Translations under genes and position numbers: made by a program
Notes under the pieces: model-generated
What the model saw: the letters and a program-made list of their open reading frames with translations, nothing else
Told to the model about the DNA's origin: nothing
The model's database searches: none
Part shown: positions 1,240 to 41,131 of the stretch, piece by piece
How positions within the stretch are numbered: the stretch's first letter is position 1
Layout of the letters: each line of letters opens with the position of its first letter
From: an uncultured Verrucomicrobiae bacterium
Lineage (GTDB): Bacteria; Verrucomicrobiota; Verrucomicrobiia; Chthoniobacterales; JAFAMB01
DNA length: 64,000 nt
Direction of reading: 5' to 3'
Assembly: GCA_963813025.1 (NCBI GenBank)
Contig: CAWEXO010000014.1
Span: 64,001-128,000 of the forward strand

Positions 1240-1349
1240 CTAGTTCCCCAGAACTCTGCGCGTTCTTTTTGCGGCAAGAAACACTGGATTGATCGCCTTG
1301 GGCATCTCGACGTAGAAAGTAGGCAGCAGTGGGTCGGCAGTTAAGACCG

Positions 1350-1500
1350 GTGTGGCATTGGAGCTTTATGCCCGATAGCTAGTTTGGTTCCGAGCGTTTT
1401 GGTTGTTGCATTAGCGAAGCTCCAGATCGGGTTGTTTGCCGATCTGGAGCTATCCTGTTTAGGAGATTTCTCTGTATCTACCAACTCGGGCCGATGCGCT
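1350..1500 (+). ncRNA. Predicted IS110 bridge RNA (boundaries approximate)
   Basis: Structured ~300-bp non-coding left end; TAGCTAG (1376-1382) equals left target+core; TTAGGAG (1459-1465) equals element right end+core; AACT (1483-1486) is complementary to core+left end; 13-bp hairpin 1418-1451. Confidence 0.65.
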
Positions 1501-1938
1501 GCAGTGTGAAAGCAAGAACAACATCTAACCCAAGAGAGGTATGGCAAAGAAAACCACGACCAAGCGAAAGAACAAATCAAAAACTCACCGGAGTGTTCTG
1601 GAACGGATCAATCTCAAGGCCGCAGGAATCGATATCGGGGCGAATTTTCACCTGGTGGCCATTCCCGAAGACCGCGGCTCAGAAACGGTGCGCAAGTTTG
1701 GCCCTTTTACGAGCGATCTGCAGCGGATGGCTGACTGGCTGAGCGAACACCACATTGAGACCGTAGTGATGGAATCAACGGGGGTTTATTGGATACCGGT
1801 GTTCCAGATTCTGGAGCAGAGAGGGTTGGAGGTAAAATTGGTCAACGCAGCTCATGTCAAGAATCTGCCTGGACGCAAAAGCGACGTCTCGGACTGCCAA
1901 TGGCTTCAACAACTCCACACCTTTGGTCTTTTAAACGG

Positions 1939-3354
1939 GAGATATTGTCAAAAGTTGTGTATCGGGGATGGGCGCATCCTTGTTAAAATGACTGGTTAGG
2001 CAGCTTGTTGGGTTTGTTCTTCGCCATCGACGAATCGGACACCAGTAACTACCTTTGGAATCAGTTCGAAGCCCTGAAGCCGGCGCCAATGCTTTTGGGC
2101 TTCCAGGCCGAGTTTAAAGACCATGGTCAGTGTTGCGATCCGTGAACCGGAACCCTTGGTTCGATGGGTTCGCAGCCGGACGGTAGCGAAGGTCGATTCG
2201 ATGGGATTGGTGGTCCGTAAATGCGGCCAATGTTGCGCCGGAAAGTCGTAAAAGGTAAACAGGACTTCTTTATCTTTCTGCAGGCATTCGCAGGCTTTTG
2301 GGAATTTGATTTGGTAACTGGAGATGAACTGATCGTAGGCTGCCAGAGCTGCTTTGCCGGTCGGCGCCAGGTACATTTCATGGATCAGTTGCTTGGCTTT
2401 GCCCTGAACGCTTTTGGGCATTTTATCCAGGATGTTGGCTGTCTTATGCACCCAGCAACGTTGTTGGGCGATCTGGGCCATATTCTTCCTGCAGAGCGAT
2501 CCAGAAGCCGAGCGAACCATCACCGATGGCCAGTTTCGGCGCGCCGGACAGCCCCAGGCGTTTGAGCTGCCCAAGCAGTTCACGCCAGGATTGAGCGCTT
2601 TCGCGATACCCGTCGACAACAGCTAACAGTTCTTTGGTGCCATCTTCGGTGGCTCCGATCAAGACCAGCACACAGGTTCGCTCTTCGTCGAGCCGGACGT
2701 TGAAATAGACTCCGTCGGCCCACCAGTAAACGTAACGCTTCTGACTCAAGTCGCGCTGACTCCAGGCCTTGTAATCTGCTTTCCCAACCCGCTCTTGAGT
2801 CGGACGATATTGGTTGCTGAAAGCCCACTGGCTCCTTCGCCCAAAATCGCTGTCAACGCTTCGCTGAAATCTCCGGTCGAGATCCCTTTCAGGTAAAGGG
2901 CTGGAATCAGAGCATCGACGCTGGGAGCCCGACGCATATACTTGGGCAGAATCGCACTGGAAAATCGACCCTTGTCACGATGCCGGACCCGTGGCTGACG
3001 AACTCGGATCGGACCAACTCCACTGACGACCTCCCGCTCCGGCAGATGTCCATTGCGTACCACCAACCGCTGTCCATTCTCATCCCGTCGATCCTTGTGG
3101 AATCTGGATATAGTCGATCACCTCATTCTCGATCGCCGCCTGTAACAGCTTCCTGGCTCCTTCTTGCAGCAACTGCTCCAGGAATGGCTTTTCTTCATCT
3201 TTTGCTCGCTCATCAAGCGAGACCACTTTACTCTCTGGCACTGGTGCATCCTTTCTTTTTGGCGCCCTCGAGTGAGGCCGCCGTCGTTTCTTTTTCTTGT
3301 TGAAAGGATGCGCCTTTCTTTTATCTCCTCATACACAAATTTCGGTTATACCTC
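1939..3354 (-). mobile_element. IS256-family insertion sequence (1416 bp)
   Basis: Terminal IRs GAGATATTGTCAAAAGTTGTGTAT / GAGGTATAACCGAAATTTGTGTAT (18/24); 9-bp TSD TTTAAACGG at 1930-1938 and 3355-3363. Confidence 0.95.
1996..3241 (-). pseudogene. IS256 transposase, frameshifted in this sequence
   Basis: Fragments VVRNGHLPERE, LYLKGISTGDF, YWWADGVYFNVR, GDGSLGFW, QRCWVHK, RTTNPIESTF lie in different frames. Confidence 0.9.
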
Positions 3355-4389
3355 TTTAAACGGCTCGTTCCGACCCAAGGACGAGGTCTGCGTCTTGCGC
3401 AGCTTCCTGCGCCTGCGCGACACCTTGGTTAAGGACTGCAGCAGCCATGTGTTACGCATGCAGAAGGCCTTAACCGAAATGAATATCCAAGTGCACCGCG
3501 TGTTGAGCGACATCACCGGTTATAGTGGCATGGCGATGATTCGGGCGATTTTGGCCGGAGAACGCAATCCGCTCAAGCTTGCCCAGATGAAACACCCCCA
3601 AGTGAAAGCATCCACTGATCAGATCGTCAAAGCCTTACAGGGAGATTACCGAGCCGAGCATCTCTTCGCCTTGCAAACGGCCCTGGAACTCTATGACACC
3701 TACCAGCTCAAGATCACCGCCTGCGAAAGCAAGATTGAGCAACAACTTGAGCAATTCGACACTAAACTAGATTTGGAGCAAGCCCTCGAGCAAAGCGGGG
3801 CGGCCCAAGCACGGTCGGCCCAAGTTCGCCTAGCCCTGCAGCGCCGAGCGCATCTGGCCAGCGTTTGTGGTGTCGATCTGAGTCAGTTGCCTGGCTTGAG
3901 CACCTTGGCGGTGGAAGTCATCATTTCGGAAACGGGTTTAGACATGACCTGTTGGAAAAGCGAAAAACACTTTTGCTCCTGGCTTAAACTCTGTCCGGAC
4001 AATCGCATCAGCGGCGGCAAACTGCTCAGTTCCAGCCCCAGAAAAACCAAGAATCGCGCGGCGGCCATGTTCCGGCTGGCGGCCCAAGGAGCCATGCAAA
4101 GTAAGACGGCCATCGGCGCTTTTATCCGCCGCATCAAAGCCCGATTGGGGGCACCCACCGCCATCAACGCCGGAGCTCATAAACTGGCACGCTTGTTCTA
4201 TCGCATGCTCAAGTTCGGAGTTGCCTATGTCGAGCAAGGGCAACTCTACTACGAGAAAAAAATACAAAGACCGCCTACTTCACAATCTCAGCCGACGAGC
4301 CAAAGAATTCGGACTCCAACTCACGCCTCTAGACCCAGCCACGGATTTAGTTTCTTAGGAGCCGTTAGCTGGCGCCAGTGCTAGTGCTA

Positions 4390-40118: not shown

Positions 40119-40507
40119 TCAAATATTCCGATAAGTCAAAACTGGTTTCTGCGATGGATAGCGATCATCCGACTCTTTTAGCAGCGAGGCAACCTTTTGC
40201 CGCGGTGCTTCTCGCCGGCGGCCGCTCGCGCCGAATGGGTCAAGATAAAGGTTTATTGCAGGCTAGTCTGGGCACAAACGTCCTGCCGCTCTGGAAACGG
40301 CAGATCTGCGTCCTGCGCAGTCTCGCTCCGGCCCGGGTAATCATTTCCGGAGAGCCCAAGCCGTACTACCCCGATGGAGTCGACCTTTTGATGGATAAGT
40401 GGACCAAAGCAGGTCCGCTGGGCGGCCTCGCGACCTGCCTGGAGGCAGTGACTCAGCCGTTCGCGCTGTTCTTGGCGATCGATTTGCCAATGATCAGCGC
40501 TGATTTT

Positions 40508-40629
40508 CTCCTAAGAAACTGGATAAGGCCGGTCTAATAAAGTTAGCTCTTCCTAAGAGCCAAACAGCCCCCAATCGAGAACTCGGATGGTTTCTTGCCG
40601 CAACAAGAACCCGCAGCGGTTCTGGGGAA
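40508..40629 (-). mobile_element. 122-bp non-autonomous IS110-derived mini-element, copy 1 (includes one CT/AG core)
   Basis: Reverse complement begins TTCCCCAGAACCGCTGCGGGTTCTTGTTGCGGCAAGAAAC (36/40 to 1244-1282) and ends AGTTTCTTAGGAG (13/13 to 4349-4361). Confidence 0.92.
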
Positions 40630-40751
40630 CTCCTAAGAAACTGGATAAGGCCGGTCTAATAAAGTTAGCTCTTCCTAAGAGCCAAACAGCCCCCAATCGA
40701 GAACTCGGATGGTTTCTTGCCGCAACAAGAACCCGCAGCGGTTCTGGGGAA
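40630..40751 (-). mobile_element. 122-bp IS110-derived mini-element, copy 2 (identical tandem copy; closing core at 40752-40753)
   Basis: Base-for-base identical to 40508-40629. Confidence 0.9.
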
Positions 40752-41131
40752 CTAGCTAAGCTTCTCGGACTATGCGAATCCGGTCTCGGTGTCGTGCCCC
40801 AGACCGAAAATGGCTTTGATCCTCTGGCTGCCACCTATCCTGTGACGGCTTTGCCGATCACGCTCCGCCGGATTCAAACAGGGGATTATCGGCTCCAGGA
40901 CTTTGTCGCGGAACTAGTCCAGCAGGGCTTGGTCGTCCTCTACCCGGTTTCGCCAAGAGAAAAGAAGCTCCTGCAGAACTGGAATTGGCCGAGCGATGTT
41001 TTCTTACGGTTTGATCCCGAAAATCGGGAGTGATTTCAGCACGGACTCCGTCACCCCGAAGATCAAGGGGATGGTTACAACCAGCCAGACTGCTATTAGC
41101 TCGGCTGGCGAACTTGGGCGTTCTTCTGATT

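Follow-up and report, generated by a model that had tools for sequence, protein, structure and literature searches.

The insert that splits mobA in the window (the whole stretch of 64,000 nucleotides that was analysed) consists of two units of 122 bp, repeated head-to-tail as a perfect dimer. We consider it very likely that this insert is a non-autonomous, gene-less ('MITE-like') derivative of an IS110-family insertion sequence (IS), moved in trans by recombinase and bridge RNA. TRF reported a single tandem array at 40508-40753 (period 122, 2.0 copies, 100% matches), and the flagged 246 bases therefore consist of two identical units plus a closing core. A preliminary description had treated them as one 122-bp mini-element; the unit is real, but the dimer state was absent from that description. 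Read on the minus strand, the insert has the order TTAGCT-AG-(120 nt)-AG-(120 nt)-AG-AAAATC. The features of the window are listed in Table 1.

Table 1. Features of the IS110-family copy, the mobA insert and the interrupted gene (positions in the window)
Feature	Position	Strand	Details
Full IS110-family copy, inactive	1244..4361	+	Interrupted at 1939-3354; extra A in the A-run 4256-4262; compared with an intact copy
TAGCTAG, putative bridge-RNA guide for the left target (5 nt of left target plus AG)	1376..1382	+	Equals left flank plus core in 8 of 13 IS copies; in related ISs this position varies together with the left flank
Putative left donor guide, TTAGGAG (last 5 nt of the right end plus AG)	1459..1465	+	Equals the right end of IS and mini-element; all 18 related ISs have an exact copy at their right end
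IS256-family element inside the IS110 copy	1939..3354	-	1416 bp; 9-bp duplication TTTAAACGG at 1930-1938 and 3355-3363
mobA, N-terminal part, to the insertion point	40154..40509	+	Pfam NTP_transf_3, 6e-20; colinear with the intact 211-aa gene of G001
Second identical mini-element unit	40508..40629	-	AG core (CT on the plus strand at 40508-40509) abuts the right flank AAAATC
Mini-element unit adjoining the left target	40630..40751	-	120 nt plus one AG core; starts TTCCCC at 40751; 100% identity (TRF), ends aligned to the IS ends
Left-end box of the unit, 43 nt, conserved	40709..40751	-	Repeated at 40587-40629
AG core, left junction (CT on the plus strand)	40752..40753	-	Further cores at 40630-40631 and 40508-40509
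Left target TTAGCT	40754..40759	-	With the core gives TAGCTAG, identical to the 7-mer of the IS non-coding arm
mobA, C-terminal part	40752..41033	+	In frame with the N-terminal part after removal of 244 bp

The first 40 nt of the unit match the window IS copy's left end (1244-1282) in 36 of 40 aligned columns, with one column a gap, and that of a second IS variant (G000:C9:178780-180483) in 38 of 40. The corresponding BLAST E-values were 1.4e-7 and 2.2e-11 in the 4.4-Mb genome. The last 13 nt of the unit, AGTTTCTTAGGAG, are identical to the IS right end at 4349-4361. AG occurs once at every junction of the insert, and there is thus no target-site duplication; the left flank, TTAGCT-AG, compares with GTAGCT-AG at the full IS copy of the window. 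The match to the IS copy of the window, the right end, the core and the left flank had been described beforehand, and each is present in the sequence. The conserved left-end box contains three GTTCTT-like motifs (CAGAAC, GTTCTT and AAGAAAC). As was also stated earlier, the unit lacks a recombinase gene and a bridge-RNA region. Its middle 69 nt yielded no detectable match to either IS variant in local alignments (best scores of 16-22, against 58-70 for the left-end match), and judging from these scores the middle probably does not derive from the present ISs. The unit ends, TTCCCC... and ...CTTAGG, are not inverted repeats, and with a single AG at each junction the unit shows neither the terminal inverted repeats nor the target-site duplication of classical MITEs. 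The only subterminal pair in the unit is 7 nt long (AAGAAAC/GTTTCTT).

The N-terminal ORF upstream of the insert (40154..40537) matched MobA-like NTP_transf_3 at 6e-20, and deletion of 244 bp restored the mobA reading frame. An empty allele had been predicted, and mobA is indeed uninterrupted (211 aa) in the sister species G001 of the same genus, with a DNA identity of 80%. A 151-nt contig of sequencing run X1 gives the sole hint of an empty mobA allele in identical flanks; at a depth of ~2 it extends 10 letters past the junction, short of the 31 letters required of a bridging record. The unit lies antisense to mobA and destroys the gene. A tblastn search for a paralogue with the N-terminal part matched the locus itself alone in this 80%-complete assembly. 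Most likely, the insertion knocks out the only mobA (molybdenum cofactor guanylyltransferase) that is detectable for this organism in an assembly of that completeness.

Searching the genome with the unit returned 23 matches, namely five full-length units at three loci, 13 IS left ends and five matches at chance level (E>3). Both mobA units and the unit at C13:343107-343228 are 100% identical (three units at two loci). The third locus, C14:36986-38912, has the order IS-mini-mini; its two mini-elements are degenerate, with small deletions and identities of 98% and 92%, and its left flank, AGGCTT-AG, is not accounted for by the guide. An intact 463-aa recombinase ORF, which had been anticipated, was found in eight of the 13 full IS copies; two other copies are interrupted. 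The recombinase of the parent IS matched the Pfam families DEDD_Tnp_IS110 (6.3e-20) and Transposase_20 (6.6e-7), both above the curated cut-offs. The IS boundaries described for the window recurred in 12 of the 13 copies, the exception being the degenerate copy C14:486490 (CA-GTCCCC). The resident IS of this genome has a length of 1692 bp.

Exact TAGCT-AG was present to the left of 8/13 IS copies and was one base off in three more, while the right flanks of the 13 copies had no consensus. At the two free-standing mini-element loci the left flanks were TTAGCT-AG and CTAGCT-AG. With just 112 occurrences over both strands of the assembly, TAGCTAG is so scarce that the siting of the unit at this motif is not a matter of chance. 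The proposal of a non-coding derivative of IS110 ends that shares the AG core and the left target with the full IS is borne out. One contig of run X1 (154 nt) links the unit's right end to a flank which is unoccupied on C12 of the present assembly (...TTCT-AGCTAGAATCC); the C12 site is thus empty in this genome and filled in one contig of this soil run. Runs X2 and X20 contained only relatives of the unit with 90-95% identity, and run X21 had no match to the unit. The mini-element looks recently active.

We surveyed 21 related IS loci for the two putative guides, and in 18 of them a scaffold pattern located the pair of 7-mers. Of these 18 ISs, 14 have an exact repeat of the first 7-mer at the left boundary, 131-163 nt upstream, with 11 different 7-mers represented. 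An exact repeat of the second lies at the right end of all 18, as 10 different 7-mers. Taken at the level of sequence, both putative guide assignments (left target and right end) hold across the 18 related ISs. Right-side guides (RTG, RDG) were sought in 14 IS arms as complements of the core plus left end and of the core plus right flank, and nothing consistent was found. An RNAalifold model of five IS arms had only four pairs with compensatory change and placed both 7-mers on the 3' side of loops. This loop placement is unlike that of IS621, and we treat the predicted fold of the IS arm as tentative. The IS of genome G025 carries TTAGGAG and TTAAGAG at the two guide positions. All eight left flanks of IS and mini-elements in G025 correspond to TTA(A/G)G-AG (five exactly, three with one base off) and none to TAGCT-AG. 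Target and putative guide have shifted together in G025, which amounts to natural re-programming.

We also searched JGI metagenomes. An exact 35-mer of the unit interior gave 0 matches, and a gapped pattern of the ends gave 37 loci, which yielded 36 matches to the pattern and 27 distinct pairs of flanks. On the left of the mini-element, the flank was exactly TAGCT-AG at 22 of the 27 distinct sites, one base off at three and unrelated at two; the right flanks varied. The expectation of further copies at TAGCTAG-type left targets was thus confirmed in the genome as well as in metagenomes. Among three mini-element subfamilies, identity was 84-88% in the left 43 nt, 85-100% in the last 13 nt, 41-52% in the middle and 58-67% in the 3' part. 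The 43-nt left-end box is also kept in units of 57-59 bp found in relatives, and elements with the same ends thus fall into three size classes (57-59 bp, 114-126 bp and 1.7 kb). The relatives with mini-elements are Verrucomicrobiota-type genomes. Several of them contain arrays: G025 has the orders micro-IS-IS-mini, micro-mini (twice) and mini-mini; G323 has a mini-element followed head-to-tail by an IS whose recombinase is 49% identical; and on one contig of G299 three IS copies are neighbours, two joined directly via one AG and the third spaced to match.

Mobilization in trans by protein and bridge RNA is the best reading of these comparative data. Each unit would retain just what the parent machinery reads in cis, that is, the 43-nt left-end box and ~13 nt of right end terminating in TTAGG, joined via the AG core. 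An intact IS copy would supply the 463-aa recombinase (DEDD_Tnp_IS110 plus Transposase_20) and the bridge RNA, in which the segment TTAGGAG would recognize the right end of the unit with the core, and the segment TAGCTAG the 5 nt of left target with the core. Recombination at AG would then insert the unit with no duplication. To the right of the core, the target appears not to be detectably read, and the left junction of a resident copy (TAGCT-AG-left end) would therefore stay a usable target; a second insertion at this occupied junction would produce the dimer. This route to the dimer and the cis role of the 43-nt box, like mobilization in trans, are inferred.

If only the left 5 nt and AG are read, occupied sites remain targets in general. 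In at least two lineages (G025 and G323), the target guide equals the family's own right end, TTAGG-AG. We tentatively raise the idea that the gene-less units are building blocks of a self-nesting system, including landing pads that seed arrays, beyond being passive hitch-hikers; this seems to us possible but doubtful. If it were true, units of 57-126 bp would be portable landing pads seeding head-to-tail arrays, and the presence of the 43-nt left box in all unit sizes would suggest that the ends are recognized at a second level as well, independently of an RNA guide. DNA of 57-59 bp is too short for closed double-stranded circles owing to the stiffness of DNA. Units of this size, if they move as units, must consequently go as single strands or by direct transfer.

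The dimer could have arisen without the recombinase, by host duplication of a single unit (unequal sister-chromatid exchange or replication slippage) or as an assembly artefact. The 100% identity of the two units fits any duplication route, none of the 27 metagenome sites holds a mini-mini dimer (short-read assemblies tend to collapse such repeats), and no contig spanning the dimer was found in the sequencing runs examined (X1, X2, X20 and X21). However, head-to-tail arrays with exactly one AG recur at many independent loci of this IS clade, in the present genome and in G025, G299 and G323, and tandem units also appear in the available text of the ISPpu9 paper (PMC12288879) and of a 2026 preprint (10.64898/2026.08.14.744561). 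A host or assembly origin of the dimer is therefore conceivable, although we lean against it. Much harder to maintain is the view that the units are immobile relics, each left by an in-place internal deletion of a full IS. The two degenerate units (98% and 92%, with small deletions) beside a full IS in the C14 array would suit it, but the same 69-nt middle is common to all units and missing from both IS variants, which contradicts deletion in place. Moreover, three units at two loci are 100% identical, the same architecture is found at 27 distinct metagenome sites, and one site that is empty here carries the unit in run X1. We regard this explanation as extremely improbable.

The unit might also be kept for a function in the IS or the host, with mobility being secondary; it could, for example, act as an sRNA comparable to Ssr9 of MITEPpu9, as a terminator or as a recombinase decoy. 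MITEPpu9 carries the sRNA gene ssr9, according to the available text of its description (PMC12288879), and the 3' 45 nt of the unit are recognizably conserved between subfamilies. A terminator scan of 40400-40860 gave two terminator-like matches, which are the same hairpin in both unit copies (nine pairs, then CTTTATT). Yet the G025 subfamily has not retained this hairpin, and conservation within the unit is lowest in the interior. The promoter scan of 40400-40860 found 0 sites, and an Rfam scan of the IS arm and the insert gave chance-level matches only (E 0.28-9.9), none of them to a bridge-RNA family. For both strands of the unit and for one G025 unit, the predicted folds were no better than those of shuffled sequences (z -0.08 to -1.46) and do not support a structured RNA in the unit; for the IS arm, the fold from a single sequence had a z of -1.68. 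Here, in addition, the unit destroys a gene and lies in antisense orientation, and on balance we hold retention for function to be unlikely. It is more unlikely still that the units were moved by another IS110-type recombinase and RNA with the same TAGCTAG guide instead of by the resident 1692-bp IS. A distinct IS in G276 (recombinase 52% identical) does carry TAGCTAG and sits at CTAGCT-AG, and this genome has a relic of a G276-type left end immediately behind its C13 unit. The G276-type IS, however, has a different left end (CGTTCAC...) and a donor guide, TGGAGAG, without a match to the unit right end TTAGG-AG, whereas the unit ends match the resident IS. Short resemblances of the unit middle to the IS arm (AGACCGG and TATCCNGTTT) were noticed by eye only.

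Classical bacterial MITEs derive from elements with DDE transposases and are short, gene-less, multi-copy and served by a transposase in trans. The present unit is likewise short, gene-less and multi-copy and is probably dependent on a transposase acting in trans. It differs from them in the lack of terminal inverted repeats and of a target-site duplication and in an insertion site that is presumably chosen by an RNA guide.

Movement of gene-less units with copied ends by IS110 machinery is already published, and MITEPpu9/ISPpu9 of Pseudomonas putida KT2440 is a close precedent (PMC12288879; this and the following comparisons refer to the portions of the sources that were available). ISPpu9 is an IS110-family element with an AG core. 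MITEPpu9 has end boxes copied from the IS, lies behind the IS or alone, occurs as tandem duplicates and forms transposase-dependent minicircles, as was shown by PCR. Common to both systems are a gene-less unit between near-copies of the IS ends (with an A box of 43 bp there and a conserved left box of 43 nt here), AG at both boundaries, placement directly behind an IS or alone, and tandem duplicates. The dependence of MITEPpu9 on the IS transposase is a further likeness, in so far as the unit here would share it. The present unit is smaller (122 bp; 57-59 bp in relatives), has no sign of an sRNA gene, and is found in Verrucomicrobiota-type hosts rather than Pseudomonas. Its target is a short CTAG-rich motif, in contrast to the REP sequences of MITEPpu9, and it has inserted independently at many sites, including one within a gene. 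For MITEPpu9, minicircles were demonstrated, whereas the unit described here is known from sequence alone. The preliminary description had left novelty to be checked; given this work and the preprint on tandem units (10.64898/2026.08.14.744561), the family is much less novel than it had seemed.

The IS621 system (Durrant et al. 2024, PMC11208160; Hiraizumi et al. 2024, PMC11208158) resembles the present one in its DEDD/Tnp recombinase, a 2-nt core and insertion without duplication. In both, a non-coding arm upstream of the gene has one segment that equals the left target plus core and another that equals the right end plus core, and the donor can be short when the RNA is provided in trans. The differences are an AG core here and a CT core there; a target of which just 5 nt plus the core are legible on the left, with right-side guides not found and right flanks unconstrained; and the predicted loop geometry of the IS arm (RNAalifold on five sequences, with little covariation). 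The natural mini-elements also keep 43 nt of the left end, which is far above the 22-bp donor that suffices for IS621 with a bridge RNA supplied in trans (PMC11208160). With such a donor known to work, and with units of 57-59 bp having the same ends in relatives, the earlier designation of the 122-bp unit as a minimal donor does not stand. Half-match recombination and expanded IS110 loci in which non-coding repeat units stand in tandem have been described as well (Hu et al. 2026, bioRxiv 10.64898/2026.08.14.744561; Xie et al. 2026, 10.64898/2026.08.31.748434). As far as the available text of these preprints goes, they share with our loci head-to-tail non-coding units and whole IS copies beside an IS110, with boundaries that match one donor arm. 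Unlike those, our units are not confined to the neighbourhood of IS copies but lie far from any of them as well, at sites set by the putative target guide, and they have both ends, so that we read them as probably moving on their own and not merely as local expansions.

Bridge recombinases are under development as programmable tools for genome editing, and their natural cis requirements and off-target routes are therefore of practical interest. The family offers a clean natural data set, with three size classes that have the same ends and natural guide changes that would move the address. Dozens of independent insertions are found at a 7-nt address which would be readable directly from the RNA, and the arrays indicate reuse of occupied sites. 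Whether the 43-nt left box is needed in cis, and how a 57-bp unit moves and through which intermediate, bear on the debate between double-stranded cut-out and single-stranded copy-out. In the IS copy of the window itself, the transposase of the inserted IS256-family element is split over three frames (Pfam Transposase_mut at 2e-21, 4e-10 and 4e-11).

The MobA-like gene is split by a single array with period 122, 2.0 copies, 100% matches and indels 0 (Tandem Repeats Finder). The preliminary description had placed one 122-bp insert here; the unit length stands, whereas the insert comprises two such units in perfect head-to-tail repetition, each a 120-nt body with a 2-nt core. On the minus strand it reads TTAGCT-AG-unit-AG-unit-AG-AAAATC (in target sites, the last hyphen precedes the AG core), and each unit begins with TTCCCCAGAAC and ends with CCAGTTTCTTAGG. 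Once 244 bp are taken out, the downstream frame of mobA is back in phase. In the sister species G001, mobA is uninterrupted (211 aa), and the two halves of the window gene lie 4 bp apart on it, compared with 248 bp here; the two genes share 80% DNA identity, and the site is CTGACGAA in G001 instead of CTAGCTAA.

Further evidence on filled and empty sites comes from the soil sequencing run X1, from which contigs only, of depth 2-3, were used. In a contig of 154 nt, the right end of the unit continues into 48 letters from elsewhere. Thirty of these have a single match in our genome, on contig C12, followed by TTCT-AGCTAGAATCC; this counterpart is a TCTAGCT-AG site, unoccupied in our genome. Another contig (151 nt) agrees fully with the mobA left flank and continues with 10 letters equal to the sequence behind the dimer. 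This is no more than a hint of an empty mobA allele, as the 10 letters fall short of the 31-letter bar for bridging.

Both ends of the unit match those of the full insertion sequence (IS) of the IS110 family, as had been described: nt 1-40 match the window copy at 1244 in 36 of 40 columns, and the final 13 nt equal 4349-4361. A second IS variant, 88% identical and on another contig, matches nt 1-40 at 38/40. For the middle 69 nt, no match to either variant was found. Each unit contains a hairpin of nine pairs, TTGGCTCTT-AGG-AAGAGCTAA, with CTTTATT behind it. A simple scan classed this hairpin as terminator-like, and it is not kept in other subfamilies of these mini-elements (minis).

We searched the whole assembly (4.42 Mb, 16 contigs, 80% complete, the window being C14:64001-128000) and obtained 23 matches to the unit: five full-length units at three loci, 13 matches to nt 1-40 alone, all of which are left ends of full ISs, and five at chance level (E>3). 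The single unit on C13 stands at CTAGCT-AG, immediately before a relic (CGTTCACAA...GCAAGGAAC) whose sequence is similar to the left end of an element of another IS110 type, which is intact in genome G276 and also equipped with a TAGCTAG guide. A relic of the same type lies inverted beside a mini in G024 (L028). Both degenerate minis on C14 have TTCGCC for TTCCCC at the left end and differ in several 1-nt deletions, which suggests that they were duplicated from each other or from one source and decayed later.

Coordinates of the elements and associated features
Record	Positions	Strand	Feature	Remarks
Window	40508-40753	minus	Unit locus 1, mobA dimer	
Window	40154..40537		mobA N-terminal ORF	Pfam NTP_transf_3, 6e-20
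Window	40543-40563, 40665-40685	minus	Unit hairpins	
Window	1376-1382		TAGCTAG in IS arm	left target + core
Window	1459-1465		TTAGGAG in IS arm	right end + core
Window	1939-3354		IS256-family element, 1416 bp	9-bp duplication TTTAAACGG, within IS110 recombinase gene
C13	343107-343228		Unit locus 2, single unit	100% identical
C13	343060-343106		Single-copy relic, about 45 nt	adjoins C13 mini; outside window
C14	36986-38912		Unit locus 3, full IS, then two degenerate units (98%, 92%) at its right end	single AG joints
C14	36986-37220		Degenerate minis, outside window	
C13	324363-326054		IS	at CTAACT-AG repeat
C14	331246-332937		IS	at CTAACT-AG repeat
L051 (G025:C2)			57-59-bp unit + mini array	at CTAACT-AG repeat
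L051	544-600	minus	57-59-bp unit	
L036	1501-1558		57-59-bp unit	
L036	1679-1704		Run of target motifs	
L029	1501-1559		57-59-bp unit	
L050 (G025:C42:56500-61500)	705-761	minus	57-bp unit	array
L050	762-2457	minus	IS, 1696 bp	array
L050	2458-4153	minus	IS, 1696 bp	array
L050	4154-4273	minus	120-bp mini	array
L065 (G323)	1055-2991	minus	Mini and IS	

Of the 13 full ISs in the genome, 12 are near-identical and 1692 bp long; the other, of 1704 bp, is divergent. A complete ORF of 463 aa with DEDD_Tnp_IS110 and Transposase_20 domains is present in 8/13 copies, and its stop codon lies within the IS right end (...TCTTAGG). The window copy is inactivated twice. It is interrupted by an IS256-family element, and its A-run at 4256-4262 has seven A, compared with six in intact copies, so that the recombinase frame is shifted near the C-terminus. 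The IS256-family element has its own Transposase_mut gene broken into three frame fragments; at least seven near-full-length copies (about 88-92% identity) and further fragments occur in the genome.

The left flank is exactly TAGCT-AG in eight of the 13 IS copies. Three others deviate by one base (CTAACT in two, CTAGCA in one), one copy has a degenerate boundary, and the flank of the IS in the C14 array is unrelated. At the two free-standing mini loci, the left flanks are TTAGCT-AG and CTAGCT-AG. We found no right-flank consensus of the elements, C being at +1 in about half. On both strands, TAGCTAG occurs 112 times in the genome, compared with 456 expected from base composition, and ten of these sites carry an element. 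Across the genome, 7- and 8-mers that contain CTAG are far rarer than expected (CTAGCTAG: 12, 64 expected); thus, the IS aims at a rare word. Three insertions have in common the site CTAACT-AG, behind which lies a repeat with a hairpin, CCAAGGGCTT(T)CGCCCTTGATATCC. This repeat appears to be of the REP or terminator type, providing a target across genera.

When JGI metagenomes were searched for the ends of the unit as a gapped pattern, 37 loci were obtained, from which 36 matches with 27 distinct flank pairs were extracted. Since the pattern contained no flanks, the target readout is unbiased: 22 of the 27 left flanks were exactly TAGCT-AG, three were one base off and two unrelated, one of these following the right end of an IS110 element of another type. 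The right flanks were variable. In one metagenome mini (L114), the left flank is that of L089 and the right flank that of L097, all three minis being of the same subfamily, as would be expected from recombination between two mini copies.

In IS621, the left guides pair with the bottom strand and thus have the same sequence as the top strand of left target or left donor plus core (Durrant et al., PMC11208160). Of 401 genomes in the order, 30 contained recombinase relatives (E<=1e-60), and the non-coding arms of related ISs were searched with the purpose-made patterns CCG-N-[5 nt + AG]-N-WTGG and CCYG-N-[5 nt + AG]-R-N-T. Both 7-mers were detected in 18 of 21 examined related IS loci. The first, the putative left-target guide, was exact at the left boundary, 131-163 nt upstream, in 14/18 (11 different 7-mers); of the four misses, one copy lay at a contig edge, one had a single mismatch, and two gave no match. 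The second, the putative left-donor guide, was exact at the right end in 18/18 (ten different 7-mers). The core was AG in all related ISs with guides, and no right-side guides were found in their arms. In G025, another genus of the family, the arm has TTAGGAG at the first and TTAAGAG at the second guide position. All left flanks of two ISs and six minis of about 120 bp there were TTA[AG]G-AG, five exact to the first guide and three one base off; none of the eight was TAGCT-AG. The right end of these minis, TTAAG-AG, matches the second guide. The target of the unit follows the guide. The left-guide assignment is solid. The fold of the arm is not: a weakly supported RNAalifold model of five arms places both 7-mers 3' in their loops, unlike IS621.

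Within the family, eight of 42 further genomes had DNA matches to the unit or its left end; elsewhere in the order, a search of 358 genomes from 15 families gave none. Three mini subfamilies (114-126 bp) share 84-88% identity in the first 43 nt and 85-100% in the last 13 nt, compared with 41-52% in the middle and 58-67% in the 3' part. The smallest members are four units of 57-59 bp, three in G025 and one in G012, which consist of the left 43 nt and about 14 nt of the right end. A scan with one genome per species gave none beyond these four; the records concerned are titled as Verrucomicrobiota MAGs. All four units stand at [CT]TA[AG][CT]T-AG, and three have a mini or IS head-to-tail behind them. 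In one such array of G025, a 57-59-bp unit with a mini, the right flank is a run of target motifs, CTAGCTAGCTTAGCTTAGCTAGCTAG.

The sequence observations of the preliminary description are confirmed and extended. The view of the unit as a non-autonomous element served by protein and RNA of the IS is probably right in substance, whereas its minimality was overstated, given the 57-59-bp units. So was its novelty. In the literature on IS110 MITEs and miniatures, ISPpu9/MITEPpu9 was the only direct precedent we found, and supplements of bioRxiv preprints may hold comparable small units. According to PMC12288879, MITEPpu9 has A'/B' boxes copied from the ISPpu9 ends and AG at both boundaries; five copies lie behind ISPpu9 and three alone, tandem duplicates occur in related strains, and minicircles, one of which holds ssr9 alone, need the transposase. 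The ISPpu9 A box has the same length as the 43-nt left box here. Two further MITE papers mention IS110 in passing only. The mobA insert belongs to a known kind of element and is itself well documented by comparative data. Of note in this family are the 43-nt left box, units as short as 57 bp, and first guides that equal the family's right end.

Head-to-tail arrays with single AG joints are frequent in the IS and its relatives. A preprint counts 468 tandem non-coding repeat units and 437 tandem IS modules at IS110 loci and also reports half-match boundaries (Hu et al. 2026). In G025 we found micro-IS-IS-mini, micro-mini (twice) and mini-mini arrays, micro denoting the 57-59-bp units. The first of these (L050) has the left flank CTAACT-AG and one AG per joint. 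The first guide of its IS, TTAGGAG, equals the right end of sibling elements, so that this IS appears programmed to land behind relatives. A contig of G299 carries three recombinase genes on the same strand at about 1.67 kb spacing, with one junction of right end, AG and left end read directly.

Together with the unconstrained right flanks, these arrays suggest that a resident element still offers a target at its left junction. The mobA dimer would then result from two successive insertions, the second at the left junction of the resident unit. A host-driven duplication or an assembly artefact could also yield a dimer of identical units; beside the many arrays of relatives, we consider this less likely. 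In the literature, single-strand, copy-out intermediates have been argued for (Sun et al. 2025; Xie et al. 2026).

In G323, an IS of 1661 bp with a recombinase 49% identical lies directly behind a 126-bp mini ending in TTAGG-AG, and its first guide is again TTAGGAG. This IS is flanked on both sides by CCCGGTGGTTAG (12 nt) plus mini, a duplication of 138 bp.
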